Shown one piece after another: positions 21,081 through 45,019 of a DNA stretch of 64,000 nt. The position numbers and the translations under genes were made by a program. The stretch is from positions 2,586-66,585 of IMG/VR virus record IMGVR_UViG_3300033571_012928. One strand, given 5' to 3'. Under the pieces are notes generated by a model, which ran no database searches, had not been told where the DNA came from, and worked only from the letters and a program-made list of their open reading frames with translations. The DNA is from a virus. Positions within the stretch are counted from its first letter, which is position 1, and the number at the start of each line of letters is the position of its first letter.

Positions 21081-22466
21081 ATGAAGAAAAAGAAAATACT
21101 TTTATTATCGGATGACCTTCGAGTTCATTCAGGGATTGGAACTATGTCCCGTGAAATTGTTCTAAACACAGTTAAAGAATTTGATTGGATTCAATTAGCA
21201 GCTGCGATTCAACATCCTGAAACAGGAAAGATGTTTGATTTGTCAGAAGAAGTTGCTAAAGTAACTGGCGTAAAAGATGCTAACGTAAAATTAATTCCAT
21301 TTGATGGATATGGCAACCAAGATGTTGTTAGAGAGTTAATTGCAGTAGAACGTCCAGATGCTATTTTGCACTTTACCGATCCTAGATTTTGGGGTTGGCT
21401 GTATCAAATGGAACATGAGATTCGTCAAGAAATTCCGTTATTTTACTATACTATTTGGGACGATAATCCAGCTCCTAGATGGAATAGACCATTTTATGAA
21501 TCTTGCGATTTATTAATGTGCATTTCAAAACAAACTAAAGCTTTAGTTACTGATGTATTGAAAGATTCAAATTATCAGCCATGGCAAATTACTTATGTGC
21601 CTCATGGTATTCCTCACGATATTTTCTTTCCATTAAATGAACAGCATGAACAGTGGAATGAATTTCAAGAATTCAAAAAGAGAATGTTAGGTGAGAAAGA
21701 ATATGACTTTATTATGTTCTACAATGCTCGAAACATTCGTCGTAAACATACACCGGATCTAATGTTAGGTTTTGAAGAATTTGTAAGTTCATTACCAAAA
21801 GAAAAACAAGATAAGTGTTTAATGTTATTGCATACAGAACCTGTAGATGAAAATGGTACGGATCTAGTTGCTGTAGCTGAAGAATGTTGCAAAACATCAA
21901 AAGTTCAATTTACTAATATTAAGCCAATATCAACTAAAGAATTAAATTTCTTGTATAACATGTCTGATATTACTGCTAATATTGCTTCAAATGAAGGATT
22001 TGGATTAGGTACAGCTGAATCGGTAATGGCAGGTACTCCAATTATAGTTAATGTAACAGGTGGAATGCAAGACCAATGTGGATTTAAAAATGAATCAGGT
22101 GAGTATTTAACAGAAGATGATTATACTCCAGCATGGCCTACAAATGCTAATGGTACATATACAGAACATGGAGAATGGGTTAAACCAATCTTCCCTAAAG
22201 CACGAACATTACAAGGTTCGCCAATGACGCCTTATATATTTGATGACATTGCAGATTATCATGAAGCTGCTAGTGCTATTAAGTATTGGTATGAAAAAAC
22301 AGATTCTGAAAGAACAGAAGCTGGTCAAAAAGGACGTGACTGGATGTTATCAGTACAAACAGGTATGTCAGCAAAAGAAATGGGTAATCGATTTATCAAA
22401 GACATGAACGTTGCATTTGATAATTGGACACCAAGATCACGTTACGAATTAGTTACAGTAAAATAA
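21081..22466 (+). CDS. GT1-family (GT-B) glycosyltransferase
   Basis: EGFGLGTAESVMAGTPIIV is the GT1 EX7E / G-x-P signature. Confidence 0.65.
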   Translation: MKKKKILLLSDDLRVHSGIGTMSREIVLNTVKEFDWIQLAAAIQHPETGKMFDLSEEVAKVTGVKDANVKLIPFDGYGNQDVVRELIAVERPDAILHFTDPRFWGWLYQMEHEIRQEIPLFYYTIWDDNPAPRWNRPFYESCDLLMCISKQTKALVTDVLKDSNYQPWQITYVPHGIPHDIFFPLNEQHEQWNEFQEFKKRMLGEKEYDFIMFYNARNIRRKHTPDLMLGFEEFVSSLPKEKQDKCLMLLHTEPVDENGTDLVAVAEECCKTSKVQFTNIKPISTKELNFLYNMSDITANIASNEGFGLGTAESVMAGTPIIVNVTGGMQDQCGFKNESGEYLTEDDYTPAWPTNANGTYTEHGEWVKPIFPKARTLQGSPMTPYIFDDIADYHEAASAIKYWYEKTDSERTEAGQKGRDWMLSVQTGMSAKEMGNRFIKDMNVAFDNWTPRSRYELVTVK

Positions 22467-22467
22467 T

Positions 22468-23742
22468 ATGGAAAAACGAATAACAGTTGTAGTACAGTCG
22501 CCGATCGCTACTAGATCGGGATATGGAGAAAGATCTCGAGATTTTGTTAGAGCATTAATTGCATTAGACAAATACGATGTAAAACTTATTCCGACTCGTT
22601 GGGGTAGTACGCCGATGAATGTATTATCAGAATCAGATACGGATATCACATCTAGAATAGTTACTCAATTAACCGAGCAACCGGATGTATACATTCAAAT
22701 TACTATTCCTAATGAATTCCAGGCTATTGGTAAGTATAATATCGGCGTAACAGCTGGTATTGAAACAACCCAATGTTCGCCTCAGTTTTTAGAAGGATGT
22801 AATAGAATGAACTTAGTATTGGCTTCATCGGAACATACTAAGTGGGTATTTGAAAACAGTAAGTATGATATCATGAATGAACAAACAAAACAAAAGGTAG
22901 GTGAATTAAAATTAACTACGCCAGTTGAGGTATTGTTCGAAGGTATTAACTTAGATATATTCAAGAAATTAGATTCTGTTGGTAATACTGAATTAAACAA
23001 AACAATGGCAGGTATTAAAGAAGACTTTTGCTATTTGTTTGTAGGACATTGGTTGCCAGGAGATTTTGGTGAAGATAGAAAAAATGTATCAGGATTGATT
23101 CGTACATTCTTTGAAGCATTTAAGAATAAAATGAATCCACCGGCATTGGTATTAAAGACTTCATTAGGAGCTCCATCTATTATGGATAGGTTAGAAATTG
23201 AAAAGAGAATCAAACTTATTAAACAAAGTGTTGATGCTAAATCATTGCCTCCAATTTATTTGATTTACGGAGATTTAACCGATCAAGAAATGAATGAACT
23301 TTATAACCATCCTAAGGTTAAGGCACATGTATCGTTCACAAAAGGCGAAGGATTTGGACGTCCATTAGCAGAAGCTGCTATTACGGGTAAGCCAATTATG
23401 GTTTCTGATTTTTCAGGACATAAAGATTTCTTACCGGATGATATGATATACTACATACCAGGTCAAATGACAAATGTTCATCCATCTGCTGCAAATGATT
23501 GGTTAATGAAAGAAGCTCAGTGGTTTACAGTAGACTATGGATATGCAATAGGATTGTTTAAAGACATTGAAAAGAACTATAAAAAGTCTTTAGAAAAGTC
23601 TAGAAAAACATATCATCATATTAAAACTAATTTTTCCTTTGATAAAATGAAAGAAAAATTAGGTTCTATCTTAACTGAAAGATTACCAGAGTTTCCTAAG
23701 CAGGTACAATTGAAACTTCCTAAACTAAAGAAGGTAGAATGA
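22468..23742 (+). CDS. GT1-family (GT-B) glycosyltransferase
   Basis: GEGFGRPLAEAAITGKPIMVSD GT1 signature. Confidence 0.65.
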   Translation: MEKRITVVVQSPIATRSGYGERSRDFVRALIALDKYDVKLIPTRWGSTPMNVLSESDTDITSRIVTQLTEQPDVYIQITIPNEFQAIGKYNIGVTAGIETTQCSPQFLEGCNRMNLVLASSEHTKWVFENSKYDIMNEQTKQKVGELKLTTPVEVLFEGINLDIFKKLDSVGNTELNKTMAGIKEDFCYLFVGHWLPGDFGEDRKNVSGLIRTFFEAFKNKMNPPALVLKTSLGAPSIMDRLEIEKRIKLIKQSVDAKSLPPIYLIYGDLTDQEMNELYNHPKVKAHVSFTKGEGFGRPLAEAAITGKPIMVSDFSGHKDFLPDDMIYYIPGQMTNVHPSAANDWLMKEAQWFTVDYGYAIGLFKDIEKNYKKSLEKSRKTYHHIKTNFSFDKMKEKLGSILTERLPEFPKQVQLKLPKLKKVE

Positions 23743-24344
23743 AAATAAGTTACGCAGTAACTGTTTGTAACGAAATCAATGAAATTCAAGAATTAATACC
23801 TCATCTTTTGGAATTTAAGCGTTCCCAGGATGAGGTAGTTGTTCTGTATGATAATAATGGAACAAAAGAAGTATTTGATTATTTACAATCAGTTGAAGGG
23901 ATCAAATTAGTATGGGACAATTTCGATGGTCACTTTGCTAATTGGAAAAACAAACTAAACTTGCTTTGCAGTGGCGATTATATTTTTCAGTTAGATGCTG
24001 ATGAATTAGTAAGTCATGCTTTTATTGAGGTACTACCTGAACTGTTAGAAGAAAATTCAGATTGTGATTTATTTTGGGTACCTAGAAGAAACATCGTTCT
24101 AGGACTAACTCAAGCACATATTGATAAATGGGGTTGGAATGTAAATGAAGAAGGCTTAGTTAATTGGCCTGATCCTCAATCTAGAATTTACAGAAATTCA
24201 GAATCAATTCATTGGGAAAACAAAGTACATGAAAAAATTGTAGGTATTAAAACAGTAGCTGTATTGCCAGCCGAGTTTAATATTTTACATGTTAAAGATA
24301 TCGAACGTCAAGAAAGACAAAACAATTATTACAGTACACTATGA
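23739..24344 (+). CDS. GT2-family glycosyltransferase
   Basis: N-terminal ISYAVTVCNE ... and a QLDADE-type DxD. Confidence 0.55.
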   Translation: MKISYAVTVCNEINEIQELIPHLLEFKRSQDEVVVLYDNNGTKEVFDYLQSVEGIKLVWDNFDGHFANWKNKLNLLCSGDYIFQLDADELVSHAFIEVLPELLEENSDCDLFWVPRRNIVLGLTQAHIDKWGWNVNEEGLVNWPDPQSRIYRNSESIHWENKVHEKIVGIKTVAVLPAEFNILHVKDIERQERQNNYYSTL

Positions 24345-25180
24345 TAGAATCTCCAATTACGTTTTGTATATCTACATACAACAACCTAGAATACTTAAAA
24401 TTAGCCGTCGAGTCAGTTCGAACCTATAGTTACTTTAAAGATGCTCCGTTTGTTGTTTATGCAGAAAATTGTACTGATGGTACAAATGAATGGCTAGAAA
24501 GCAATGAATATGATTTAGAGTATTACATTGAAACCAATGAAGTAGCAAAAGGCATTGGCGGTGGCATGAATATTTGTGCCGAAATGGTTCGAACTAAATA
24601 TATTATGTTTTTACATAGTGACTTTTACGTAAGTAGATATTGGGATAAGATGTGCTTAGACGAACTAAGTAAACATGAGTCTACGCCTACTTGGGTATTT
24701 AGTCACAGAGTTGAACCTGATATGTTCGGATCTCCTAGTAGACCAGGTACGATCATTTTACCTCAAGAAGCATTTGGTGCATACTATGATGATTTTCGAG
24801 CTGCAGAGGCTGAAGCATGGATGTATGAATTTGGTTTAATGAATAACTTTACAATTCCAAAAGCTGAAGGAGTATCTGGATTGATATCTAAAGCCGATTG
24901 GGATAGAATAGGAGGTAACGATCCTCAGTTCGCTCCAACATCATGGGAAGATATGGATCTATTCTTAAGAATGCATAAAGCAGGATATCAATTCATTTTA
25001 ACATCCAAATCAGTAGTATGGCACTTCGGTGCTAGGGGCAGTCATAGACTAGAGGAGAATAATGGCCAATCTGACTTACGTCAGGTCAGTACAGAACGTA
25101 TAAACCAGGAAAAATTCTATAAGAAATGGGGTGGATTTCCTGTATTTAATGAATATGGATTAATAGTAGGAGTACAATGA
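24341..25180 (+). CDS. GT2-family glycosyltransferase
   Basis: FCISTYNNLEYLKLAVESV N-terminal GT-A pattern. Confidence 0.55.
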   Translation: MIESPITFCISTYNNLEYLKLAVESVRTYSYFKDAPFVVYAENCTDGTNEWLESNEYDLEYYIETNEVAKGIGGGMNICAEMVRTKYIMFLHSDFYVSRYWDKMCLDELSKHESTPTWVFSHRVEPDMFGSPSRPGTIILPQEAFGAYYDDFRAAEAEAWMYEFGLMNNFTIPKAEGVSGLISKADWDRIGGNDPQFAPTSWEDMDLFLRMHKAGYQFILTSKSVVWHFGARGSHRLEENNGQSDLRQVSTERINQEKFYKKWGGFPVFNEYGLIVGVQ

Positions 25181-25824
25181 AAACAGTAGCTATTTTCGGA
25201 GGAACAGGCGGATTAGGTAGTCAGTTAGTTCCTATGTTACAGGAAAAATATAACGTTATAGCATTAGGTTCAAAAGATATAGATGTAACTAGTTTTACAG
25301 CTGTAAATGAATTTTTTAACTCTCATGCTATTGATATTGTCATTAACTTAAGTGGATATAATTCAGATAGTTTTTTACATAAATACAATGAATCAAATTA
25401 TCATGCAATACAAAAGCAAGTTGATATCAATATTATGGGTACGATTAACATCGCAGTTGCATGTATAAATCATATGCGACGTAACAACTACGGTCGTATC
25501 ATATTAACATCATCAGTGCTAGCCGATCATCCCGTAGTTAGTACTAGTATCTATGCTGGATGTAAAGGATTCATAGATAGTTTAACTAAAACAGTAGCTA
25601 TCGAAAATGCAGGTAAAAATGTTACATGTAATAGTTTACAATTAGGATACTTTGATGGAGGATTGACATATAAAATACCAGAAGAATTCCGTAATAATGT
25701 TAAAGAAACAATACCAGCAAAACGTTGGGGTTCGATTGAAGAATTATATAATACAATTGAGTTCATTATAAATACAGGATATTATACAGGTCAAAATGTT
25801 AACATAAGTGGAGGAATCATTTAA
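25177..25824 (+). CDS. short-chain dehydrogenase/reductase (SDR)
   Basis: VAIFGGTGGLGSQL glycine-rich NAD(P) motif and YAGCK (YxxxK) catalytic motif. Confidence 0.75.
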   Translation: MKTVAIFGGTGGLGSQLVPMLQEKYNVIALGSKDIDVTSFTAVNEFFNSHAIDIVINLSGYNSDSFLHKYNESNYHAIQKQVDINIMGTINIAVACINHMRRNNYGRIILTSSVLADHPVVSTSIYAGCKGFIDSLTKTVAIENAGKNVTCNSLQLGYFDGGLTYKIPEEFRNNVKETIPAKRWGSIEELYNTIEFIINTGYYTGQNVNISGGII

Positions 25825-26675
25825 TGGAAACTTATCAGGATCTATTTAATAATGTTAATATCACTGCAAAGGAACTTAACATAGGTAACAATGTTAAATT
25901 CGGTAAAGATGTTAAAATCAATGTTCGTGGTAAACTTACTATTGGCGACAATAGTATTATCGGTGATAGGTTCAATGCCAATGCCGAAAACATTGAATTA
26001 GGTGAGTATTTTTATAATGGACCTACAGATAGTCGTGGAATGAATATCGGCGGCGGAAGTTCGAACTTCCCATATGCAAATCTAAAGATAGGCAGTGGTA
26101 TGGTATGTCATACCGGTCATATAAATTTAGCCGATACTGTTACTATAGGCAATGACGTAGGATTATCACATGATGTAGATTTAATCACTCATGGCTTTTG
26201 GTATAATGTATTGGATGGATATCCTAGAACGTTTAAGGGCATTATAATAGGCAATAATGTAATAGTAGGATGGAAGTCTATTATAATGGCAGGAGTTGAT
26301 ATTTGTGATAATGTAGTAATAGGATCTCATTCTACAGTTACAAAGTCATTAACTACTAGTAAAGCTATCTATGCGGGCTCGCCATGTAAATTGATTAAAA
26401 CAATTGAAGAACCATCAATGTCAGAAAAAGACATAATGTTAGATGGTATTGTAGATGACTTTAAAAAATTAATGTCATATTATGATATACCAGAGTTTAC
26501 AATTCATCATGAGTATCCTAAATTGTATATTAACAAATTAGAAATAGATTTAGTTGATTTTAGTTACAAAGGCGAACATGACGAAATAACAGATGCATTT
26601 AGAGACTTTGCCAGAAGATATGGCATTCGAGTGTATGCACCTCAAGGTTATAAATTTAATTTAACAAGAAAATGA
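25824..26675 (+). CDS. hexapeptide-repeat (LbH) acyl/acetyltransferase
   Basis: Repeated [LIV]-G-x-x-x-x hexads: IGNNVIVGWKSIIMAGVDICDNVVIGSHSTV. Confidence 0.7.
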   Translation: METYQDLFNNVNITAKELNIGNNVKFGKDVKINVRGKLTIGDNSIIGDRFNANAENIELGEYFYNGPTDSRGMNIGGGSSNFPYANLKIGSGMVCHTGHINLADTVTIGNDVGLSHDVDLITHGFWYNVLDGYPRTFKGIIIGNNVIVGWKSIIMAGVDICDNVVIGSHSTVTKSLTTSKAIYAGSPCKLIKTIEEPSMSEKDIMLDGIVDDFKKLMSYYDIPEFTIHHEYPKLYINKLEIDLVDFSYKGEHDEITDAFRDFARRYGIRVYAPQGYKFNLTRK

Positions 26676-27304
26676 AATTTTTGAATTTTAATAGGGTACT
26701 TTGTTTAAGCCCACATCCAGATGATGTTGAATACAGTATGTCAGGTACGGTGTTAAAATACAGTGATACTAGATTTGATATTCTGTGTTTAACTCAAGGC
26801 GGAGACTGCGACTCAACTACTAGTAAAGAACGACTGCAAGAAGTATTAGATGCATGGTCGGTTAGTGAAGCAGATAACTATACGTTATTGTTTAGTGATG
26901 CAAAGTTTTTACGAGATAAGGATATAGACCAATGGGTTAATTACATTGAAACTAACTTTACTAATCTATATGAATATGATTGTATCATGACTACATCTGA
27001 CTGTGACAGTCACTTTGAACATATTATTGTAAGTAGTTTAGCTGCACCGTTAGCTAGAATCAAACCATATAGTATAATTCAATACAGATCTCCATCTACA
27101 TTAGAAAAATGGACACCAAATTTATTTGTTTCTTTGAAAGAATTCTATTATATTAAATGTAATATGCTTAAGCAATTTATATCGCAACAATCTAAGCCTT
27201 ATTTTTCTGAAGATGTATTGAATGGGTTTCATACAAATTTTCAGTGTATGAAGAAAGGTAAAGGTTATATCGAATCTTATAAAATTATAACATCATATGA
27301 ATAA
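26672..27304 (+). CDS. PIG-L/LmbE-family N-acetylglucosaminyl deacetylase
   Basis: LCLSPHPDDVEYSMSGT is the LmbE HPDDE-type motif. Confidence 0.7.
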   Translation: MKFLNFNRVLCLSPHPDDVEYSMSGTVLKYSDTRFDILCLTQGGDCDSTTSKERLQEVLDAWSVSEADNYTLLFSDAKFLRDKDIDQWVNYIETNFTNLYEYDCIMTTSDCDSHFEHIIVSSLAAPLARIKPYSIIQYRSPSTLEKWTPNLFVSLKEFYYIKCNMLKQFISQQSKPYFSEDVLNGFHTNFQCMKKGKGYIESYKIITSYE

Positions 27305-28079
27305 AATAGTAATTTACTGTAAGTCATATGATAAAGATGTTCATAGGGCTAAAAAACTATTAGACAGTGTTAATGAATTTAACAAAGACAACATTCCATT
27401 TTATATATCAGTACCTGAAAAAGATCTTGAACTATTTAAAACGGTATTAGGTGAGGATGTTAATATTATAACAGATGAATCGATTGATACATCTAATCAA
27501 GGATGGAAAGGGCAGCAAATTGTTAAAAGTCAATTTTGGAAATTAGGATTGTGTGAAAATTATCTATGTGTAGATTCAGATTGTTTTTTTATAAAGCCAT
27601 TTTACATTAGTGATTTTATGTTTGATGGCGAAACGCCGTATACGGTTTGTCACGAATATAAATCATTTTTCGAGTTCATGGATAAGTTTCCATTGAACTT
27701 TGATCCGTATCAGTCATTTGCAAATGAACGTTTACAAATAATGGAAATATTTGGAAGAACAGGTGCAATTTACGATTTCGGACCTGGTCCTACCATATGG
27801 TCTAGTAAGGTTTGGCAATCATTGGAAGATGAATATATCGTACCTAATAACATTACATTTGCAGATCTAATAGAAGCAAATGGTTCGGAATTTACTTGGT
27901 ATGGTGAGTGGTTATTACATAGTCAAGCAATTCGTTTAATGCCTAAAGGTCCTTTATTTAAAAACTATCATTATCCGCATCAATACGATTTCGATAAGCA
28001 TTATCAGTATAACATAGAGAAGATTTCAAAGTTGTACTTGGGAATTGGATTGCAATCAATATATGACTTTAATATATGA
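27297..28079 (+). CDS. hypothetical protein in glycan island
   Basis: ORF, translationally coupled. Confidence 0.5.
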   Translation: MNKIVIYCKSYDKDVHRAKKLLDSVNEFNKDNIPFYISVPEKDLELFKTVLGEDVNIITDESIDTSNQGWKGQQIVKSQFWKLGLCENYLCVDSDCFFIKPFYISDFMFDGETPYTVCHEYKSFFEFMDKFPLNFDPYQSFANERLQIMEIFGRTGAIYDFGPGPTIWSSKVWQSLEDEYIVPNNITFADLIEANGSEFTWYGEWLLHSQAIRLMPKGPLFKNYHYPHQYDFDKHYQYNIEKISKLYLGIGLQSIYDFNI

Positions 28080-29634: not shown

Positions 29635-29637
29635 TTT

Positions 29638-30600
29638 ATGAAAGATAAAAAAATATTAATCATCGGAGGTACAGGTGCATTAGGTAAAACTTTAATTCGC
29701 ACTTATCAAGATTCAAATAATATTCGTGTATTTAGTAGAGACGAACATAAACAAGTTTATTTAATGGCGGCAGATTGGGTCAATAAAAACAATGTGTCAT
29801 GTATGATAGGCGATGTTAAAGATAAAGATTCTATTGCAAATGCATTGATAGAATACAAGCCAGATGTAGTAATCAACGCAGCTGCATTAAAACATGTACC
29901 TATCTGTGAATCAAATCCATATGAGTCAGTTAACGTTAACATTATTGGACATCAAAACTTATTAGAATGTATAACAAGATCAACTCATAAAATTGAAACT
30001 ATAATCTATGTATCTTCTGATAAAGCATGTAAGCCAGTCAATGTATATGGAATGTCTAAAGCAATATCAGAACGATTATATATTGAGTTTGCTAAGAAAC
30101 AAACATCAATCAAAGTATGCTTAGTTCGTTATGGTAATGTATTAGAATCTACTGGATCTGTTATTCCTTATTTTAAACAATTATTAAACGGTAATGCCGA
30201 GTATCTTCCTATCACTGATATGAGAATGACTAGATTTTTATTGACATTGGATAGTGCAGTTGATTTGATTGATTGGGCATATAATACACCCGAATCTCAT
30301 GGATGTATTGCTATTCCTAAAGTGCAGTCATTTAAAATTGAGCACATTGCAAAGGCATTGGTTAAACATTATTTAGGTAATGAAACTGCTATTCCATTGA
30401 AACAAGTAGGAATTCGTAAAGGCGAAAAGCTACATGAGGAAATGATATCAGATGAAGAATGGATGCGAACTATTGAAATGAAAAATTATCTTATTACGGA
30501 TAATATTGTAAGAGATGAGCATAAGTCTTATAATTCATTTGATGAGTTAATGCCAGAAGAAAATGTATATGAATTTTTAAAACAAACTAACGTATTATGA
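29638..30600 (+). CDS. UDP-sugar 4,6-dehydratase, PseB/FlaA1/CapD-like
   Basis: ILIIGGTGALGKTLI plus the hallmark FSRDEHKQ (PseB SRDELKQ) and YVSSDKA...YGMSKA catalytic region. Confidence 0.75.
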   Translation: MKDKKILIIGGTGALGKTLIRTYQDSNNIRVFSRDEHKQVYLMAADWVNKNNVSCMIGDVKDKDSIANALIEYKPDVVINAAALKHVPICESNPYESVNVNIIGHQNLLECITRSTHKIETIIYVSSDKACKPVNVYGMSKAISERLYIEFAKKQTSIKVCLVRYGNVLESTGSVIPYFKQLLNGNAEYLPITDMRMTRFLLTLDSAVDLIDWAYNTPESHGCIAIPKVQSFKIEHIAKALVKHYLGNETAIPLKQVGIRKGEKLHEEMISDEEWMRTIEMKNYLITDNIVRDEHKSYNSFDELMPEENVYEFLKQTNVL

Positions 30601-31154
30601 CACCAATATATTTAAGAAATGTACCACCGCCAATGGAAACTTTCGAGCATGTAAATATGCTCGAGTGGTATGCAGCATGGATTCGCCCTGAACGCTATTT
30701 AGAACTAGGAGTAAGAGATGGTAAGTGCTTTGTACCAGTATCAGAGTATTGTAAAGAAGCCATTGCAGTTGACGCTGCTCCTAGACCTTTTGAGTTGCGT
30801 AGTAATATGACATATCATGAAATGTATACTGATCAATACTTTGAATCAATTAAAGATCAAGGACTTAAGTTTGATATGGTATTCATTGATGCGGATCACA
30901 GTCATGAACAATCATATAAAGATTTTCTTAATGTAAAAGACATGGTTGTGTCTGATGGGTTTGTATTTTTTCATGATACATATCCTTTTAGCGAAGAGTT
31001 AACACAGCCATTTTATTGCAATGATTGTTATAAAACGCCAATTGCAATCAAAGAAAACTTTTCCAATGAATGGGAAGTTGTTACGCTACCATTTAATCCA
31101 GGTGTTACTATTTGTAAAAAAGTTCAACTAGATAATAAGTTGCCATGGATGTAA
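30597..31154 (+). CDS. class I SAM-dependent methyltransferase (TylF/MycF-like)
   Basis: MVFIDADHSHEQSYKDF is typical of macrocin-O-methyltransferase-like proteins. Confidence 0.55.
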   Translation: MTPIYLRNVPPPMETFEHVNMLEWYAAWIRPERYLELGVRDGKCFVPVSEYCKEAIAVDAAPRPFELRSNMTYHEMYTDQYFESIKDQGLKFDMVFIDADHSHEQSYKDFLNVKDMVVSDGFVFFHDTYPFSEELTQPFYCNDCYKTPIAIKENFSNEWEVVTLPFNPGVTICKKVQLDNKLPWM

Positions 31155-31867
31155 TGGTATTAGGCCATAAAGGAATGTTAGGTTCTATAGTTAAACAGTA
31201 TTTAGAATCTAAAGGCTATGTAGTTCATTTTTTAACTACTAGATATGGAGATAAGTATTTTCAGGAATCAATCAAAAAGTTCAATGGAGATTTTATCATT
31301 AACTGTATTGGATCTATACCTCAAAGAACAAATGACTTTAAAGTAAATACAGATTTACCAATTCTATTATCTAACATTGCTCCATGTAAAGTCATTCATC
31401 CTGGCACTGATTGTGAAATGGATATAGATCCATATGGTACTTCAAAAAGAATAGCTACCGAGTATATTAGTCTATACAGTACAAATACTAAGATTTTAAA
31501 AACATCTATAGTAGGACCTGAAAATGATACAGCATTTGGTTTAATGTCTTGGTTAGGCGCACAAACAGGTACGGTTCAAGGATATACAAAGGCAATGTGG
31601 AATGGTAATACAACATTGGAATGGGCAAAGCATGCTGAGGCATTAATGATGAATTGGGATTCATATGAAACATTAAATATACTTGAAGGCGAGTGTCTAA
31701 GTAAATTTGATATGTTACATTTATTTGCTGAGTTTTATAACAAAACTGATTTAACAATTGAGCCAATTGAATTAGGAAAGAATAAGTGCTTAGTAGGTAA
31801 TATTAAAACAAAGCCTTTTAAAGATCAATTAATAGAGTTAAAAGAATTTTACCATGGTTCAGTATAA
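31145..31867 (+). CDS. NAD(P)-dependent sugar reductase/epimerase (RmlD-like)
   Basis: MDVMVLGHKGMLGSIV Rossmann start; 240 aa. Confidence 0.5.
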   Translation: MDVMVLGHKGMLGSIVKQYLESKGYVVHFLTTRYGDKYFQESIKKFNGDFIINCIGSIPQRTNDFKVNTDLPILLSNIAPCKVIHPGTDCEMDIDPYGTSKRIATEYISLYSTNTKILKTSIVGPENDTAFGLMSWLGAQTGTVQGYTKAMWNGNTTLEWAKHAEALMMNWDSYETLNILEGECLSKFDMLHLFAEFYNKTDLTIEPIELGKNKCLVGNIKTKPFKDQLIELKEFYHGSV

Positions 31868-32753
31868 TGAGTTCTTCGGTCATGCCGATACAGTAGATAA
31901 ATTAGGATATCCAGAGTCTAGTAACAAATACATACCAGATGAGTACTTAAATAACAAACAATTTATATTGTTTCGTACATGTCATAGTTATGGAGATTGG
32001 ATTATACTTTCTGCAATGCCTAGACTATTAAAACAAAAATATCCGGATTGTACTGTAATTATACCTTCTCCTACATGTATAGCTAAATACTTCTCACCTA
32101 ATAATTGGCACAATAAACATGCTAATCCATTTAATAATGTAATAGAAGTATTTAGAAACAATCCATATGTAGATGGAATGATAGATGAAATACCAGATGG
32201 AATTCCCGTATATCATGATCACTTTCGTATCTATGACGAATCAAATACAAATATACCTTTGATTCAACAAATGTTAAAGTTTTGGAAATTCGAAGATCAT
32301 GAAATGTTAGATTGTCAACCCGAATTGTATTGGGATGAGTCTGAAAAGCAACAAGGCGATCAAATCATAAAAGATACATTTGGTACTGAAGAATTTGGAT
32401 TTCTGTATATAGACGATTCATTCTTTTATTCCGTTCCGTGGTACCATGATAAGATCGAAGGTAAGCGAGAATTAATACAACGAGAAATAGATAAACATGA
32501 TCTAATATGGTTATACTTTTCAGGACCAGATGAATTCAAGTATACAGTAAAAAATAAAATTGTCAATGTAAAAGACTTGAATGTATCATTGAGAGTTCAG
32601 AACTATATCAAAACCAAATCTAAATTAGTTATTGGCCATCAAGGCGGATTCGGTACTGATTGTATGCCTAGATATACAACATGTTATGTAGTTCCATTGG
32701 TATATGATTTGATCAATGAACATATTCAATTTGGAACTATTTACCTTAAATAA
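31854..32753 (+). CDS. hypothetical protein in glycan island
   Basis: ORF. Confidence 0.5.
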   Translation: MVQYNEFFGHADTVDKLGYPESSNKYIPDEYLNNKQFILFRTCHSYGDWIILSAMPRLLKQKYPDCTVIIPSPTCIAKYFSPNNWHNKHANPFNNVIEVFRNNPYVDGMIDEIPDGIPVYHDHFRIYDESNTNIPLIQQMLKFWKFEDHEMLDCQPELYWDESEKQQGDQIIKDTFGTEEFGFLYIDDSFFYSVPWYHDKIEGKRELIQREIDKHDLIWLYFSGPDEFKYTVKNKIVNVKDLNVSLRVQNYIKTKSKLVIGHQGGFGTDCMPRYTTCYVVPLVYDLINEHIQFGTIYLK

Positions 32754-32790
32754 CTTTGAAATATAAACAAAATTCATTATATTAAATCAT
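32752..32790 (+). promoter_or_regulatory. promoter-like AT-rich element (ATTATATTAA box)
   Basis: TTTGAAATATAAACAAAATTCATTATATTAAATCAT immediately 5' of the ATG. Confidence 0.35.
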
Positions 32791-33411
32791 ATGTCAGACT
32801 TAAACGAAATTATTCAAAAGTATCCTTCATCAGATAAAGGACCTAATTATCACGACTATCTTAAGTTTTATGAAAAACATATTTCAAAGTTTAAGGATTC
32901 CTTAACTAATATGTTAGAAATAGGAGTATATCAAGGAGATAGTATTCGAATGTGGAGAGATTACTTTTCTACAGGTAACTTAGTAGCTATCGACATTCTA
33001 GATCTAAGTCATATTCAACTTCCAAATACAACTATTAAAGTATGTGACCAAGCTGAAAGAAGTCAATTGCAAGAACTAATTGATTCTACATTTAATAGTT
33101 TTGATATTATCATTGACGATGGCGGTCATATGATGCATCAACAACAAATTTCATTAGGATATTTATTTCCATTTTTATCTTCAGGTGGAGTATATGTAAT
33201 TGAAGACTTACATACTTCGGGTCATGGAGCGTATACAAGAGGAGATGCAGATGGTCATATGTTAAACATCTTAAATGAATTTGCTAGTACCGGTAAGATT
33301 ACTAGTAATTTAATGACCGACGAAGAAATTGAGTATATCGAAAACAATACTGAAGTATGTGTTATCGAACAAGGAGCTCAATCTCCTATTGCATTTATTA
33401 TTAAAAAATAA
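32791..33411 (+). CDS. class I SAM-dependent methyltransferase
   Basis: LEIGVYQGDS (motif I) and IIDDGGH (post-I/II) pattern. Confidence 0.6.
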   Translation: MSDLNEIIQKYPSSDKGPNYHDYLKFYEKHISKFKDSLTNMLEIGVYQGDSIRMWRDYFSTGNLVAIDILDLSHIQLPNTTIKVCDQAERSQLQELIDSTFNSFDIIIDDGGHMMHQQQISLGYLFPFLSSGGVYVIEDLHTSGHGAYTRGDADGHMLNILNEFASTGKITSNLMTDEEIEYIENNTEVCVIEQGAQSPIAFIIKK

Positions 33412-34250
33412 TGAGTGCTTGTATTCTATTTGCTTGTACGTGTTTAGATAGAAATAGACTATTCGTAGTTAATGAATTTATCAATGCATTTAAACAAAAT
33501 TTCAGTGATGTAGATATCTATACTGGCATCAACTATGGATCTATAGATGATATAGAAAATATATTAGATGAATCAGGTTTAAACATACAATACAAACGAA
33601 TAGTAGATCCTAAAAAGTATACAGCATCAGATGCGGGTGCGTACCAAATGGCAATTAGGTTATTATTGGATTCAAATAAAGAATATGATAACTATTGGTT
33701 TATTCATACAAAAGGATCTGTAAATGGTCATAGTGATTATTTACGTGGATGGTACATAGAACACTTACTCAATAAACGACAACACGTGGAGTATTTTATG
33801 ACTCATGGTATAGGTAGTTATGGTTTATTAGCTACCTATGCAAATCCATTAGATTTTCCTAGCGAAGACTATAACATTGATATTCCATTGGTATCAAATG
33901 AAATTACAGATGATTTTATATGTACTAAAATGCCATATTTTTATATACATTCAATGTATGTAATAGCTAAAGGCCCAATGTCTGTATTTTTGAAAAGCAT
34001 ATCATATAAATTCTTTGAACATCCATTAAACAAATACTTCTTCGAAGGTGCAATGCCATATATAGCTTCTAGAACAGGATACTTTACTTATGTAGATAAT
34101 ATGGTTAGTGCACATACCGACACGGATCTTCGATTGCCAGCATATGAATGGATCTTACGAAACCAACGAGAAGAATTAACGGGATATTTAACAATGCCCA
34201 TGCGACTATATAAATTTGAACAACTAAACCCACCTTACTTACCATGTTAA
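33411..34250 (+). CDS. hypothetical protein in glycan island
   Basis: ORF. Confidence 0.5.
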   Translation: MSACILFACTCLDRNRLFVVNEFINAFKQNFSDVDIYTGINYGSIDDIENILDESGLNIQYKRIVDPKKYTASDAGAYQMAIRLLLDSNKEYDNYWFIHTKGSVNGHSDYLRGWYIEHLLNKRQHVEYFMTHGIGSYGLLATYANPLDFPSEDYNIDIPLVSNEITDDFICTKMPYFYIHSMYVIAKGPMSVFLKSISYKFFEHPLNKYFFEGAMPYIASRTGYFTYVDNMVSAHTDTDLRLPAYEWILRNQREELTGYLTMPMRLYKFEQLNPPYLPC

Positions 34251-34966
34251 TAGTAACATTAAATCATAACTTACCTAATTGGACTGACAATCTAGTAAGT
34301 CAATTAAAACGAGATCCAATGTTTGCAGAATGCGAACTTATGGTAATAGATAATGGATCTACAGAAACAATTGCTAAATCAACTACGCATCGTTTAGACG
34401 AAAACATATTCTTCGGAGGTGGTATTAATGTAGCGTTAGAATACTTTTTAAGTACCGATCACGAATACATGTATTTTTTAAACAATGACATTGTATTTCA
34501 TGGGCCTAGCTTTTTAACAACCTCAATGAAAGAAGCTAAAGAATCTAATGCTAGTATTTATTCTCCCTCTATTATCAACGCATCAATGGAACAATGTCAT
34601 TGGAAACAAATGTGGAATTGGGGTAAAGGATTGCGTGACGTAAGATGGATTGACTTTCAGGCTCCATTGATTAGAAGAGACATTGCTGAGAAAATAAAAC
34701 AATTTCCAATGGAGTTAATCTATGGATGGGGCACAGATTTTTATGCAGGATGTATTGCGGATACAAATGATCTTAAAATTGTAGTATCTGATACTAATAC
34801 AGTAACTCATATGAATTCTCTTACATTTAAGGAAAATAAAATCAATATTGGAGTTAATGAATTTTGTCAAGAAGCTGAAAGACAAATGTATAGTTTCTTT
34901 AGTAATTCTGAATTTAATTCATTATATTTTGATTTAAGGACATATGGGGAGCAGTATACAGCATGA
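34244..34966 (+). CDS. GT2-like glycosyltransferase
   Basis: LIVTLNHN ... MVIDNGS ... FLNNDIVF follows the GT-A pattern. Confidence 0.5.
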   Translation: MLIVTLNHNLPNWTDNLVSQLKRDPMFAECELMVIDNGSTETIAKSTTHRLDENIFFGGGINVALEYFLSTDHEYMYFLNNDIVFHGPSFLTTSMKEAKESNASIYSPSIINASMEQCHWKQMWNWGKGLRDVRWIDFQAPLIRRDIAEKIKQFPMELIYGWGTDFYAGCIADTNDLKIVVSDTNTVTHMNSLTFKENKINIGVNEFCQEAERQMYSFFSNSEFNSLYFDLRTYGEQYTA

Positions 34967-35592
34967 GACATGACATTTCACAATTAACAGAACAGCTTCA
35001 AAAAGAAGCATTTAAGCCTAGTTCATTTATTGAAATAGGATCGAGAGACGGGCATGATACTAATTACATATGTCAGTATTGGAATTTAGATCCGAATAAC
35101 TGCTATATTATAGAAGCACATCCTAAGTGCTTTGAATTTATTCAACGTACATATCCTCAGTATAAATCATTAAATGTAGCCGCATCAAATAAAACAGATG
35201 TAATTACATTCAATGCAGGTATTATAGGACAAGAACCAAATGTAGGAGTTTCTTCCGTATTAACAAATCCAACGAGTAACTTTATTTCAGAAACTGTAGA
35301 AGTAGATGCATGGCGTATGGAAGATATTATGAATCACTTTAATATAGATAAATTTGACTTTATGAAAATAGATGTCGAAGGCCATGGTTTAGAAGTATTA
35401 AAAGGATTTGGAGATAAAATAAAACAAACTAAGTACATACAAATCGAAGTAGAAACATTAGAAGTATGGACAGGTCAGTCATTACAAGAAGACATTGTAA
35501 ATTATATGGAAACATTAGGATTTGAAATGATTAACGATGTAAACTTAGATGGCATACAACATGACATTTTACTAAAAAACAAATTAATATGA
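34963..35592 (+). CDS. FkbM-family methyltransferase
   Basis: IEIGSRDGHDT ... MKIDVEGHGLEVLKG is characteristic of FkbM MTases. Confidence 0.65.
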   Translation: MRHDISQLTEQLQKEAFKPSSFIEIGSRDGHDTNYICQYWNLDPNNCYIIEAHPKCFEFIQRTYPQYKSLNVAASNKTDVITFNAGIIGQEPNVGVSSVLTNPTSNFISETVEVDAWRMEDIMNHFNIDKFDFMKIDVEGHGLEVLKGFGDKIKQTKYIQIEVETLEVWTGQSLQEDIVNYMETLGFEMINDVNLDGIQHDILLKNKLI

Positions 35593-36656
35593 TATCAATT
35601 ATTATACCAGCACATAACAATTTAAGGCATTTAAAAAATGCATATGCATCAGTAAAGAAACATGCTCCTGAAGCTGAAGTAGTCTTATTAGATGATGCAT
35701 CAACAGACGGAACTTGGGAGTGGATAGAATCATTGAATGATGATAAACTAATTAGTTATAAAAGTCCTACTAGAGATGGTCATACTGTATTGTATGACAT
35801 GGGTATTCAACTAGCTACAAATGACATAGTTGGCATAATGCATGCGGATATGATAATGGGTCCGAATTATGTTGAGAACGTTATAAAGCACTTAAAGCCA
35901 GGTACAGTAGTATGTGCGACTAGGATTGAGCCACCTCTTCATCCTCCGGGAAAAGAAAAGATAATTATGGACTTTGGAATGGACTTTGATTCTTTAAATG
36001 TATTAGGATTTGAACAGTATTGCGATGAATTGCAAATTGAATTTAAAGATCAAACTACAAAAGGAATGTTCGCTCCATGGGTCTTATATAAAGAAGACTT
36101 TGAAAGAATAGGCGGGCATGATTGGGGATTCGCTCCTTTTCCATATGAAGATTCTGATATCTTTCAAAGATGGATATTAGCTGGATATGAACTAGTTCAA
36201 TCTAGAGATGCATTTGTATATCACTTAACATGTAGAGGACATAGATGGACCGGAGAGATTGGTAAGAATGATGATTACTTTACGCATGCTGAGTTCATGG
36301 CTAGAAACTATTACATTAAGAAATGGGGAAGTTGGATTGAAAACAATGAATATGGCCATCCTATTTTAAAGCCAGTATATACTAAATGTGCTATTGTTAA
36401 AAACTATCAATTAACGGTTATGGATCCATGGCTAGGTGATATCAATCCTAAAGATACTAGCAAGTATGATATAGTAGTTGAATTAGATCTTAAAACAGTG
36501 ACTAATGCTGAGTTTACAGCACTAACATATTTAAATGAAATGGTAGCCGAAGCTAATGAATTGGGTACTTATGAAATAGGACTAATGAAAGTACATGTAA
36601 ATTCATTAGAAGATCGTAGCCATGAATTAATACACTGCAACAATGAAGCATCTTAA
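35589..36656 (+). CDS. GT2-family glycosyltransferase
   Basis: ISIIIPAHNNLRHLKNAYASV ... LLDDASTDGT is a classic GT2 start plus DxD. Confidence 0.7.
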   Translation: MISIIIPAHNNLRHLKNAYASVKKHAPEAEVVLLDDASTDGTWEWIESLNDDKLISYKSPTRDGHTVLYDMGIQLATNDIVGIMHADMIMGPNYVENVIKHLKPGTVVCATRIEPPLHPPGKEKIIMDFGMDFDSLNVLGFEQYCDELQIEFKDQTTKGMFAPWVLYKEDFERIGGHDWGFAPFPYEDSDIFQRWILAGYELVQSRDAFVYHLTCRGHRWTGEIGKNDDYFTHAEFMARNYYIKKWGSWIENNEYGHPILKPVYTKCAIVKNYQLTVMDPWLGDINPKDTSKYDIVVELDLKTVTNAEFTALTYLNEMVAEANELGTYEIGLMKVHVNSLEDRSHELIHCNNEAS

Positions 36657-43299: not shown

Positions 43300-43304
43300 A
43301 AGTT

Positions 43305-43703: not shown

Positions 43704-43705
43704 AT

Positions 43706-44164: not shown

Positions 44165-44168
44165 GAAA

Positions 44169-45017: not shown

Positions 45018-45019
45018 TT

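Follow-up and report, generated by a model that had tools for sequence, protein, structure and literature searches.

A replaceable sugar-modification cassette within a conserved glycosyltransferase frame in a T4-like aquatic myovirus and its possible role in virion glycosylation

Introduction

To our knowledge, mycobacteriophages provide the sole experimentally shown case of phage virion glycosylation. As Freeman et al. 2023 is cited in PMC12619734, phage-encoded glycosyltransferases glycosylate capsid and tail-tube subunits. In contrast to the locus described here, the genes of these actinobacteriophages are few and lie within or close to the structural operon, and the phages are not known to have a large sugar-synthesis cassette. 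On the major capsid protein of chloroviruses, the core glycan is conserved and its methylated or acetylated decorations differ between viruses; it is made in the cytoplasm by virus-encoded enzymes (PBCV-1 A064R and others, putatively NY-2A B736L) without host ER or membrane machinery (PMC9614988). In the Megavirinae (Mimivirus, Megavirus chilensis Mg534-Mg539, Moumouvirus, and Tupanvirus), virus-encoded nucleotide-sugar pathways and glycosyltransferases form clade-specific clusters of 6 to 33 genes at a fixed locus, and Mg534 is a fibril-glycan enzyme of the UDP-L-RhaNAc/L-QuiNAc pathway (PMC10117803). Among T4-like phages, the cyanophages P-SSM2, S-SCSM1, and S-SCSM2R contain “LPS / cell-wall synthesis and modification” clusters with up to 13 glycosyltransferases, nucleotide-sugar epimerases, and RmlC (PMC12801897).

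The island analyzed here lies in a window of 64,000 nucleotides (positions 2,586 to 66,585 of IMG/VR record IMGVR_UViG_3300033571_012928). It resembles each of these systems in part and has a two-layered organization that is a new observation of this study.

Gene content of the island

The window is part of a T4-like, “immuto-like” aquatic myovirus. Its replication genes include those for a T4-type PolB and a clamp loader, and it has relatives in phage collections, in agreement with the phage origin proposed in the initial annotation, whose coordinates and gene count for the island were also exact. Positions 21081 to 36656 hold 19 tightly packed ORFs on the + strand, adjacent genes overlapping by 1 to 14 nt or being separated by 1 to 37 nt. 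They encode glycosyltransferases, SDR enzymes, a UDP-GlcNAc 4,6-dehydratase, an acyltransferase, an LmbE deacetylase, and methyltransferases. Pfam and NCBIfam searches support 15 of the 19 genes. The island is similar in composition to the rest of the window (GC of 0.320 versus 0.326; codon-usage r of 0.977), which points to long residence in the phage. The genes are as follows.

g01, 21081..22466, +, GT-B (GT4-like) glycosyltransferase, conserved left core; Pfam Glycos_transf_1, E 4.9e-6, barely at cut-off
g02, 22468..23742, +, GT-B (GT4-like) glycosyltransferase, conserved left core; Pfam Glycos_transf_1, E 4e-5, marginally under cut-off
g03, 23739..24344, +, GT2 (GT-A) glycosyltransferase, conserved left core; Pfam Glycos_transf_2, E 5e-11, above cut-off
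g04, 24341..25180, +, GT2 glycosyltransferase, semi-conserved, opens the variable cassette; Pfam GT2, E 2e-11, above cut-off
g05, 25177..25824, +, classical SDR (FabG-like ketoreductase); Pfam adh_short_C2, E 2e-24
g06, 25824..26675, +, left-handed beta-helix (hexapeptide) acyltransferase; Pfam Hexapep, 34.3 bits, cut-off 27
g07, 26672..27304, +, PIG-L/LmbE-family de-N-acetylase; Pfam PIG-L, E 2.9e-10, 41.2 bits, cut-off 28.2
g08, 27297..28079, +, DUF6492 protein; Pfam DUF6492, E 9e-12
g09, 28076..28933, +, extended SDR nucleotide-sugar epimerase/reductase; Pfam Epimerase, E 1.9e-35
g10, 28933..29634, +, soluble protein with a “DSD” motif, GT-A-like by eye only
g11, 29638..30600, +, UDP-HexNAc 4,6-dehydratase (5-epimerase type), PseB/FnlA/Mg534 family; Pfam Polysacc_synt_2, E 4e-79
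g12, 30597..31154, +, SAM methyltransferase; Pfam Methyltransf_24, E 8e-11
g13, 31145..31867, +, short Rossmann protein; Pfam Epimerase, weak, N terminus only, E 1.2e-4
g14, 31854..32753, +, GT9-like GT-B glycosyltransferase (modeled fold), uncharacterized family
g15, 32791..33411, +, probable SAM methyltransferase; Pfam Methyltransf_24, E 6.7e-5, 24.2 bits, cut-off 26.3
g16, 33411..34250, +, soluble protein
g17, 34244..34966, +, probable GT2-like glycosyltransferase, semi-conserved; Pfam GT2, E 2.5e-4, 21.4 bits, cut-off 23.3
g18, 34963..35592, +, FkbM-family methyltransferase, closes the variable cassette; Pfam Methyltransf_21, E 2e-18; NCBIfam fkbM_fam, above cut-off
g19, 35589..36656, +, GT2 glycosyltransferase with C-terminal extension, conserved right flank; Pfam GT2, E 8e-21, above cut-off

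Six glycosyltransferases are well supported (g01, g02, g03, g04, g14, and g19) and a seventh, g17, weakly; g08, possibly a GT-A-like transferase, g10, and g16 are candidates. At least five GT-A enzymes had been annotated initially, a count that is partly verified, with three firm (g03, g04, and g19) and one weak (g17). Neither g10 nor g16 matched a Pfam, NCBIfam, or PHROG family. g02 is a distant paralog of g01, and both match phrog_2170 “glycosyltransferase” (E 1.3e-18 and 7.7e-14, respectively). The top solved match of both is chlorovirus B736L (PDB 3oy2; E 6.9e-10 for g01 and 6.1e-6 for g02), but this similarity is low (E 1e-6 to 1e-10) and restricted to the C-terminal domain. g02 also shows weak C-terminal similarity (24% identity) to glycosyltransferases of Arthrobacter phages.

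The signature “FSRDEHKQ” noted previously is present in g11, whose full-length top PDB match is Megavirus Mg534 (4TQG; E 3e-56), followed by PseB (2gn4). Its description as PseB type was, however, overstated, as g11 reaches 252.6 bits where the PseB equivalog model requires 407.75, and there is no PseC, PseF, or PseI. g13 is a candidate RmlD-like 4-reductase, and a homologue (30% identity) lies near a g11 homologue in megaphage LR745206. In NCBIfam, g05 resembles 3-oxoacyl-ACP reductases (under cut-off) and g06 resembles O-acetyltransferases, while g15 matches one domain of a 1,226-aa multi-GT protein of phage Mel-JY01. g14 has no Pfam match but has 289 metagenomic homologues; its AlphaFold model (pLDDT 89.8) and Foldseek matches to GT9 3tov (E 1e-7), WaaF 1psw (E 1.8e-4), and TibC 4rap (E ∼2e-3) predict a GT9-like GT-B fold. 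As stated initially, the cassette of the window contains no aminotransferase, and its gene content supports a set of phage genes for synthesizing, decorating, and transferring a sugar of the deoxy-HexNAc type.

Conserved frame and replaceable cassette

The initial annotation missed the most telling feature of the locus, its layout in two layers: a conserved glycosyltransferase frame (g01 to g03 at the left end, g19 at the right) and a replaceable cassette. The frame sits directly after the replication module, and its four genes occupy the same position after a PD-(D/E)XK nuclease in >60 related contigs as well as in two cultured phages, immuto and Mel-JY01. The order clamp loader, PD-(D/E)XK nuclease, g01, g02, g03 is found in 36 IMG/VR loci and in both cultured phages, with g01 orthologues 44 to 47% identical. 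Homologues of g02 occur in at least 8,000 metagenomic clusters, on contigs of up to 188 kb, and full-length g19 orthologues occur in immuto (39% identity) and at least 25 viral contigs. The four frame glycosyltransferases are fixed in an abundant immuto-like T4-type myovirus lineage, with core orthologues in phages of both Bacteroidota (immuto) and Cyanobacteria (Mel-JY01).

The replaceable cassette comprises g04 to g18 (24345 to 35588; 11.2 kb). An exact exchange is seen in one relative, L130, whose backbone is 93 to 100% identical to the window in amino acid sequence and 92.6% identical in nucleotide sequence, with flanks of similar identity (g03, 94.5%; g19, 93%). Homology between the two ends at 24344, the 3′ end of g03 and left recombination boundary, and restarts at 35588; in between, L130 has an unrelated 8-kb cassette with DegT, GT11, GT17, and other genes. 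L043 has the cassette of the window plus one additional methyltransferase. The cassette is a mosaic of submodules (g05 to g08, g09 to g14, and g15 to g17) that recombine between phages, and modular recombination was seen in 28 further loci. g15, g16, and g17 recur jointly (L138, L140, and L141), g10 is conserved in L043, L138, L140, and L147, and g08 appears repeatedly across related cassettes. The outermost genes are semi-conserved: g04 is 65 to 71% identical in L132 to L134, L140, and L144 and just 40% identical in L021, while g01 to g03 of L021 are 71 to 84% identical, and g17 lies directly upstream of g19 in many relatives (68 to 84% identity). Across 21 loci, 127 protein families were found 3′ of g03, many of them sugar dehydratases, aminotransferases, GT2 enzymes, and methyltransferases.

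All island proteins are soluble, none having a transmembrane segment. Flippases, polymerases, and initiating enzymes acting on a lipid carrier are absent from ∼40 cassettes, as are proteins with four or more transmembrane-like segments.

Comparison with described systems

Like the Megavirinae clusters, the island has a fixed position between conserved genes and variable content (varying by clade in Megavirinae), and its products would likewise be 6-deoxy-HexNAc sugars derived from UDP-GlcNAc. The Megavirinae, however, are giant viruses of eukaryotes, and chemical analysis has proven the glycans on their capsid fibrils, whereas the island belongs to a tailed phage; it lacks an Mg536-type 2-epimerase, and its cassettes are swapped even between ∼93% identical genomes and not only between clades. 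The proposed conserved core with strain-specific decoration would recall chloroviruses, but chlorovirus glycosyltransferase genes are scattered and those of the island form one swappable cassette. The cyanophages with comparable clusters are also large aquatic T4-like myoviruses but belong to another lineage (window PolB is ∼31% identical to cyanophage gp43). No cyanomyovirus homologue of g01 or g02 was found in the phage collection, and in the literature searched we did not find the conserved-flank, replaceable-cassette layout described for the cyanophage clusters.

Bacterial O-antigen and capsule loci have the same gene repertoire as the island and are likewise modular mosaics in which recombination between conserved flanks replaces genes. 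Unlike them, the island is viral, has flanks that are themselves glycosyltransferases, and lacks an initiating phosphoglycosyl transferase, Wzx/Wzy, an ABC transporter, and a chain-length regulator.

Possible function and alternatives

We tentatively propose, with a probability of about 0.4, that the locus is a phage-encoded glycan-assembly line whose enzymes, working in the cytoplasm, add glycans to virion proteins of the phage. g11 would convert host UDP-GlcNAc to UDP-4-keto-6-deoxy-HexNAc, and reduction and epimerization by g09 and/or g13 may give a 6-deoxy-L-HexNAc of the RhaNAc, QuiNAc, or FucNAc type. g07, g06, and g05 could remove the N-acetyl group and re-acylate the sugar, and g12, g15, and g18 could add O- or N-methyl groups. 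The 6 to 10 glycosyltransferases would then build a strain-specific oligosaccharide on a core made by the conserved enzymes, and one or more virion proteins would be glycosylated before or during assembly. A virion-protein acceptor is the most likely one given soluble enzymes, no lipid-carrier or export machinery, a core present across unrelated hosts, and the sugar-free DNA of a relative; the core's presence in phages of both Bacteroidota and Cyanobacteria favors an acceptor encoded by the phage. The acceptor suggested initially, a probable fibre-like virion protein at 41081 to 42079, shows no linkage to the island in relatives. Against virion glycosylation, the island adjoins early/replication genes, away from the structural module, and similarity to giant-virus enzymes may reflect merely a shared viral gene pool.

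The main rival, which we consider possible but doubtful, is that the enzymes act on host lipid-linked intermediates (Und-PP-sugars or lipid A-core) during infection, altering O antigen, capsule, or LPS core; this could block superinfection by competitors or keep progeny off debris. The gene content is of the O-antigen/capsule type, and hypervariability is likewise expected from a cell-surface arms race, in which cassette swapping would follow host or competitor diversity. Solubility is compatible with such a role: GT4 and GT2 enzymes acting on lipid-linked acceptors are often soluble or peripheral, and soluble glycosyltransferases also use Und-PP-linked intermediates at the inner membrane face. 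GT9-fold enzymes are typically LPS-core heptosyltransferases, with which g14 would share its modeled fold. The comparable cyanophage clusters have been interpreted as putatively envelope modifying (PMC12801897). Envelope remodeling would rely on the initiating transferase, flippase, and exporter of the host and could recruit its Wzx/Wzy or ABC exporters, but Wzx and Wzy are usually repeat-unit specific, and a polyprenyl-phosphate initiating transferase, Wzx, Wzy, ABC exporter, or ligase is found in 0 of ∼40 cassettes. Moreover, the core glycosyltransferases are common to phages infecting Bacteroidota and Cyanobacteria, two groups with different envelopes, and they belong to the fixed core of a T4-like lineage of virulent type, unlike lysogenic-conversion morons.

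Two further acceptors carry less weight. All enzymes being soluble, the glycan might be built on a host cytoplasmic protein, on a small molecule, or on an oligosaccharide that stays free or is secreted, e.g., disarming host defence or sequestering nucleotide sugars. The closest NCBIfam neighbors of g01 and g07 are the small-molecule enzymes MshA, BshA, and BshB, all far under cut-off, but these family-level similarities are generic to GT4 and LmbE folds. We know of no phage precedent, and an assembly line with as many as ten transferases and decoration that differs by strain is typical of exposed glycoconjugates, not metabolites, which makes this reading improbable. Glycosylation of the phage DNA, the other acceptor offered by the initial annotation, is unlikely, and we give very little credence to an oligosaccharide on a modified base that evades restriction. 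The island does lie directly 3′ of the replication and nucleotide-metabolism module, and on the T4 map the alpha-glucosyltransferase gene follows recombination nuclease genes 46/47. Phage clusters of glycosyltransferases and epimerases that add mono- to disaccharides to 5hmC exist, but they are small and lie beside 5mYOX or ThyS genes (bioRxiv 10.1101/2023.12.21.572611), and no known DNA glycan comes close to the complexity implied by 6 to 10 glycosyltransferases along with three methyltransferases, an acyltransferase, and a deacetylase. Immuto, which carries a sugar cassette along with orthologues of the core, yielded by LC-UV-MS/MS dA, dC, dT, and fdPreQ1 replacing dG and nothing else, with no sugar nucleoside reported (PMC10516641). 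No dCMP/dUMP hydroxymethylase, TET/5mYOX, or C5-methyltransferase was found among the Pfam-scanned ORFs of the window (including all but two of those of at least 200 aa), and the modification pathway that it does encode is that of 7-deazaguanine. The GT-B paralogs that had been placed in the replication module as support for a DNA acceptor belong to the neighborhood of that pathway, not of the island. A GT4-fold enzyme is embedded in 7-deazaguanine DNA-modification clusters.

The middle part of the locus is exchanged whole between near-identical phages, resembling the swapping of surface-sugar genes in bacteria. If the locus does glycosylate virion proteins, each phage strain would carry its own surface glycan “serotype,” comparable to the glycans of chloroviruses, Megavirinae, and mycobacteriophages.

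Gene content of the island

The stretch from 21081 to 36656 holds exactly 19 ORFs (g01 to g19, all on the + strand), and neighboring genes either overlap by 1 to 14 nt or leave a gap of ≤37 nt. Profile searches returned sugar-pathway or glycosyltransferase matches for 15 of the 19, which, together with the ORF calls, bears out the initial annotation of the region as a run of sugar and glycosyltransferase genes. The same annotation had counted at least five GT2/GT-A enzymes; three are firm and one is weak.

Profile-based assignments of the island genes
g01, g02: GT4-type GT-B glycosyltransferases (GT4-like by sequence; best PDB match, chlorovirus B736L)
g03, g04, g19: GT2 glycosyltransferases
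g05: classical SDR
g06: hexapeptide acyltransferase
g07: LmbE/PIG-L deacetylase
g08: DUF6492
g09: extended SDR (E = 1.9e-35)
g11: Polysacc_synt_2 4,6-dehydratase (E = 4e-79)
g12: Methyltransf_24
g13: weak Rossmann match only
g15: Methyltransf_24, weak
g17: GT2, weak
g18: FkbM methyltransferase
g10, g16: no assignment from PHROG and further Pfam scans

The island matches the rest of the window in composition (GC of 0.320; codon usage, r = 0.977), and it therefore did not arrive recently from a genome of different composition. A Megablast search of phage records with the island gave zero matches. The T4 late-promoter motif TATAAATA occurs at 9 sites where 18 are expected, only 1 of them on the coding strand; a sigma-70/terminator scan remained at or below chance level, and there is no enrichment of the direct repeat AAGAACGGTT that precedes g01.

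The product of g14 (31854 to 32753) has no family match, yet its AlphaFold model is confident (pLDDT of 89.8) and adopts a GT9-like GT-B fold. Its 289 metagenomic homologues (49 to 97% identity) all lack a Pfam domain, and g14 is the founder of an uncharacterized family. Many residues are invariant across this family, including the "GDW" and "HDHFR" motifs. Assignment as a TibC-like protein heptosyltransferase was rejected, since generic GT9 structures (3tov, WaaF) outranked TibC in the fold search and BLASTP against a TibC/GT9-containing protein of Microcystis phage Mel-JY01 was not significant.

A conserved frame and an exchangeable cassette

Coding in the window is wholly on the + strand, at a GC content of about 0.32, and includes a T4-type replication module with a dNMP kinase and the following genes.

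Replication genes of the window
9398 to 11968, +, family-B polymerase (phrog_262, E = 4e-178)
16357 to 17286, +, clamp loader
19432 to 20382, +, PD-(D/E)XK nuclease

NAMPT, RNA ligase, and related genes sit downstream of the replication module and the island. Immuto-like phages form a group with genomes of 155 to 190 kb in which PolA, PolB, or PolC is interchangeable (PMC11348598). The lineage is abundant, as public metagenomes contain at least 8000 clusters of the g02 family, with contigs of up to 188 kb.

The order clamp loader, PD-(D/E)XK nuclease, g01, g02, g03 is kept in every one of the 36 IMG/VR loci that g02 retrieved, as well as in the cultured relatives Flavobacterium phage immuto and Mel-JY01, at 42 to 57% identity to the window. 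Downstream of g03, gene content varies from locus to locus, with 127 protein families among 21 loci. These are mainly GDP-mannose-type and other SDR dehydratases/epimerases, GT2 enzymes, DegT aminotransferases, Methyltransf_24 proteins, hexapeptide acyltransferases, RmlC, and TPP-dependent enzymes.

Contig L130 (ENA ERZ28593558 scaffold_592) provides the decisive case. Starting where PolB ends and up to the small ORF that precedes g01, it is 93 to 100% identical to the window in protein and 92.6% identical in DNA; g01, g02, and g03 are 82, 86, and 94.5% identical, respectively, and g19 with the two small ORFs behind it is 90 to 93% identical. The 8.0-kb interval between g03 and g19 of L130 has no similarity to the cassette of the window (g04 to g18, 24345 to 35588) and encodes DUF3431, a DegT aminotransferase, an SDR, GT11, GT2+DUF5672, GT17, and a second GT2. 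The recombination boundaries are exact, at 24344/24345 and 35588/35589. Conversely, another contig (L043) carries the cassette of the window in the same gene order at 67 to 95% identity, with one extra FkbM methyltransferase gene between g13 and g14.

A separate search with g19 found full-length orthologues in at least 25 further viral contigs, and g01 to g03 lay 2.5 to 8 kb upstream wherever the contig reached far enough. Modular variation at a fixed position was seen across 28 + 36 loci. In the g19 loci, the submodules g05 to g08, g09 to g14, and g15 to g17 recur in differing combinations, and g04, g08, and g17 are frequent. The cassette of the window (11.2 kb) is the longest among those seen. 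Bacterial O-antigen and capsule loci likewise have conserved flanks and a mosaic, swappable center, and here too nucleotide-sugar synthesis and several glycosyltransferases are swapped between conserved flanks, but the flanks of the island are themselves glycosyltransferases.

Between the window and L130, which differ in their cassettes, g01 and g02 (82 to 86% identity) are less conserved than the backbone, g03, and g19 (93 to 100%), which may mean that these two genes evolve in step with the acceptor or the cassette. A GIY-YIG (I-TevI/SegE-like) homing endonuclease gene (15720 to 16355), lying between the putative sliding clamp gene and the clamp loader gene, is an insertion relative to this 93%-identical contig.

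Predicted sugar chemistry

The g11 protein aligns over its full length with Mg534 of Megavirus chilensis (PDB 4TQG; E = 3e-56), a UDP-GlcNAc 4,6-dehydratase/5-epimerase of the UDP-L-RhaNAc/L-QuiNAc pathway for Megavirus fibril glycans (PMC10117803), and slightly less well with Helicobacter pylori PseB (2gn4), CapE, and PglF; the S/T-D-K and Y-x-x-x-K motifs are kept in the alignment. It scores below both equivalog cutoffs (PseB [TIGR03589], 252.6 versus 407.75 bits; FnlA, 200 versus 730 bits). Judged by sequence, g11 is a predicted enzyme of the UDP-GlcNAc 4,6-dehydratase/5-epimerase type at the level of family membership only, and the earlier "PseB-type" label holds at that level but fails at the TIGR03589 cutoff. 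A pseudaminic acid pathway is not supported at the same cutoff, and PseC, PseI, and PseF are absent from the island, in which no DegT, NeuB, or cytidylyltransferase domain was found that could stand for PseC, PseH, PseI, or PseF.

The island also has no Epimerase_2 match for a UDP-HexNAc 2-epimerase (FnlC/Mg536), so the product would stop at a RhaNAc-type sugar. Candidates for C3 epimerase/C4 reductase are g09 (extended SDR) and g13 (weak Rossmann match); the WbcJ reductase model matched g09 at an E value of 2.6e-6, far below its cutoff. From these family memberships, we infer as the most economical pathway that g11 would convert UDP-GlcNAc to UDP-4-keto-6-deoxy-L-HexNAc, that g09 and/or g13 would take the keto intermediate to a 6-deoxy-L-HexNAc, that g07, g06, and g05 would exchange the N-acyl group, and that g12, g15, and g18 would add methyl groups. 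No nucleotidyltransferase is present in the cassette, so the donors have to come from nucleotide sugars of the host, mainly UDP-GlcNAc via g11.

The uncultured 634-kb megaphage LR745206 (locus L001) encodes a g11 homologue (67% identity; 20001 to 20948), with a homologue of g13 (25858 to 26550) at a distance of 5 kb, indicating that the deoxy-HexNAc module circulates among very different phages.

Absence of membrane and export functions

None of the 19 island proteins has a TM-compatible hydrophobic segment, and no protein with ≥4 TM-like segments occurs in the island or in the alternative cassettes, which were covered by 171 nonredundant ORFs downstream of g03, 187 ORFs upstream of g19 (20 loci), and the L130 cassette. 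The lack of such proteins indicates that an initiating transferase, Wzx, Wzy, an ABC exporter, a ligase, and a GtrA/B-type component are all missing. In agreement, the island has no Bac_transf or Glycos_transf_4 match for a WecA/WbaP-type initiating polyprenyl-phosphate sugar-phosphate transferase, and no Wzx, Wzy, ABC exporter, ligase, or GtrA/GtrB/Oac-type component was found in the island or in ∼40 related cassettes.

The 7-deazaguanine cluster and other surroundings

Genes for 7-deazaguanine synthesis lie upstream of the island, and QueC and QueF were not recognized within the window.

7-Deazaguanine genes and associated ORFs
1915 to 2382, +, QueD (PTPS)
2989 to 3786, +, QueE-like radical-SAM enzyme
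6075 to 6716, +, FolE
7460 to 8497, +, GT4-fold protein
8481 to 8987, +, PRTase (phosphoribosyltransferase)
11972 to 12319, +, 115-aa ORF
12316 to 13329, +, paralogous GT4-fold protein
13336 to 14544, +, protein with the TGT motif "GDSGGFQ"

To judge by QueD, the QueE-like enzyme, FolE, and the PRTase, G in the phage DNA is probably replaced by or modified to a 7-deazaguanine derivative, as happens in immuto with fdPreQ1. On its motif and context, the protein at 13336 to 14544 is a probable DpdA; it had no PDB match and no significant hhalign match to immuto DpdA3, and its only Pfam match was to TGT (E = 0.095). An HNH endonuclease-like ORF (3839 to 4531) lies between the QueE-like gene and folE.

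The initial annotation had reported GT-B paralogs in the replication module. They are genuine GT4-fold proteins and lie, with the 115-aa ORF, inside the 7-deazaguanine cluster. The AlphaFold model (pLDDT of 90.2) matched MshA, BshA, PimB', and glycogen synthase in Foldseek at ∼1e-10, and not the T4 beta-glucosyltransferase (beta-GT). Each of the five further lineages that were examined (Pseudomonas jumbo phage PA5oct, Sinorhizobium phage Phosso, Acidovorax phage ACP17, Xanthomonas phage X1, and Synechococcus phage BUCT-ZZ01) likewise has a homologue lying among FolE, QueD, QueE, and TGT genes. It directly adjoins an annotated queuine tRNA-ribosyltransferase gene in X1 and is accompanied by the 115-aa ORF in PA5oct, Phosso, and ACP17 (3 of 5); it is absent from immuto. 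When Cui et al. attempted to reconstitute dDG formation with dpdL and dpdA of ACP17, they did not succeed, and they suggested that unknown enzymes are missing. The GT4-fold protein may supply a missing step, or a new one, in deazaguanine DNA modification. No link between a glycosyltransferase and a DpdA cluster was found in the literature searched, and the association is a separate, possibly more novel lead.

Downstream of the island, the segment from 42643 to 47989 looks like an NAD+ salvage/ADP-ribose block of the kind reported from other large phages. NAMPT (46493 to 47989, +) was tested by profile search; metallophosphatase-, P-loop kinase-, PRPP-synthetase- (44169 to 45017), macro-domain-, and nucleoside deoxyribosyltransferase-like ORFs were noted by eye. 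An orphan GT2 gene with a strong score (52541 to 53254; E = 3e-25), 16 kb from the island, is flanked by genes for a metallophosphatase and a PolyA_pol-head (CCA-adding type) nucleotidyltransferase; with RNA ligase (48486 to 49625), its surroundings look like an RNA-repair block.

Acceptor of the glycan

The virion, the host envelope, and the phage DNA were weighed as acceptors. We favor virion glycosylation, at a probability of roughly 0.4, whereby a phage-encoded acceptor would be glycosylated in the cytoplasm. A phage protein as the acceptor is favored by an all-soluble assembly line, a lineage-wide core regardless of host phylum, diversification at the strain level, and the best solved matches of g01/g02 (chlorovirus B736L) and of g11 (Megavirus Mg534), both from viruses that glycosylate their own particles. 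Clustering of virus-encoded nucleotide-sugar enzymes with glycosyltransferases, in an established phage context, and gene content that differs by strain or clade while its genomic position stays fixed are also what a virion-glycosylation cluster would have. The lack of TM proteins in the island and in ∼40 cassettes is consistent with a cytoplasmic pathway, although host membrane machinery could still serve. Remodeling of the host envelope by the island enzymes is the usual speculation for cyanophage clusters (PMC12801897), and the gene repertoire and the GT9-like g14 would suit such a target. We place it somewhat below virion glycosylation, as the main rival, given that an export or initiation function is consistently missing across ∼40 cassettes and that the core enzymes are conserved between phages of Bacteroidota and Cyanobacteria.

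Transfer of the glycan to phage DNA, raised in the initial annotation as DNA sugar hypermodification, is highly improbable. Immuto has an orthologous core and an 11-kb sugar cassette, yet LC-UV-MS/MS of its DNA found dA, dC, and dT, with fdPreQ1 fully replacing dG, and reported no sugar adduct or glycosylated nucleoside (PMC10516641); immuto serves here as a proxy for the phage of the window. No dCMP/dUMP hydroxymethylase, TET/5mYOX, or C5-methyltransferase was found among the Pfam-scanned ORFs (which took in every ORF of ≥200 aa except two, in a window of about one-third of the genome), and known DNA-glycan clusters are small and adjoin enzymes of these kinds (bioRxiv 10.1101/2023.12.21.572611). 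The DNA modification that the window does encode is the 7-deazaguanine pathway. Together, the sugar-free immuto DNA, the lack of base-modifying enzymes among the scanned ORFs, and the small size of known clusters make DNA an unlikely target.

Giant viruses offer close parallels to the island. In chloroviruses, a conserved core oligosaccharide bears methylated or acetylated decorations that differ between viruses (PMC9614988), and in Megavirinae, each clade has its own cluster, which occupies a fixed locus (PMC10117803). Under virion glycosylation, we tentatively suggest the still more specific picture of an abundant aquatic T4-like lineage that wears a strain-specific virion glycan coat, which an O-antigen-like locus would encode, the cassette exchanged by recombination between the conserved glycosyltransferase flanks in effect defining phage "serotypes."

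The Ser/Thr/Ala-rich protein at 41081 to 42079, with "SASYALNA"-type repeats, had been named as a candidate acceptor. It is probably a fibre-like virion protein, to judge by a repeat module common to proteins of 400 to 2400 aa in 205 viral contigs; of 10 such proteins tested, 3 matched PHROGs for tail fibre, tail spike, or virion. The 41081 to 42079 protein had no match of its own in Pfam, PHROG, or tblastn against cultured phages. It was rejected as the glycan acceptor because its counterparts do not adjoin the island in relatives and nothing ties it to a glycan. Also rejected as a link to virion glycosylation was a 1226-aa protein in the structural module of Mel-JY01 (L003; 4750 to 8427), annotated as "methyltransferase FkbM," with GT4, g15-like methyltransferase, TibC N-terminal, and GT9 domains. 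Its TibC/GT9 part recurs in megaphages of 636 to 735 kb and not in immuto, so it is not lineage-wide.

Novelty and significance

Sugar and glycosyltransferase islands are known in large aquatic phages (P-SSM2, S-SCSM1, and S-SCSM2R, with 13 GTs) (PMC12801897), core glycosyltransferases are known in other large-phage lineages (PMC12619734), and elaborate glycosylation clusters are known in giant viruses (PMC10117803, PMC9614988). Mycobacteriophage virion glycosylation has been shown experimentally in work as cited in PMC12619734. The immuto genes of the locus are annotated in GenBank, and no discussion of the immuto/Mel-JY01 glycosyltransferase cluster was found in the literature searched. New here are the frame-plus-cassette architecture with exact boundaries, recombinational exchange of the cassette among phages whose genomes are nearly identical, the systematic absence of membrane machinery, and the literature-based evidence against DNA as the acceptor.

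The locus is a rich source of uncharacterized soluble glycosyltransferases (e.g., the g14 family) and sugar-tailoring enzymes, and the acceptor question is testable either way, as the conserved core is common to two cultured phages, immuto and Mel-JY01, and the boundaries are known. If the glycan is on the host, the island would offer the clearest example so far of a swappable surface-remodeling kit in a virulent phage. If virion glycosylation by exchangeable cassettes is true, phages of Gram-negative or aquatic bacteria would for the first time be seen to encode a complex glycosylation of their own virions, a prokaryotic-virus counterpart to that of chloroviruses and Megavirinae. Lake and ocean phage particles would then carry variable sugar coats, with possible effects on adsorption, grazing, and decay, on how the particles stick to mucus or to other particles, and on their recognition by host defenses, and the sugar "serotype" would be a new axis of phage diversity.
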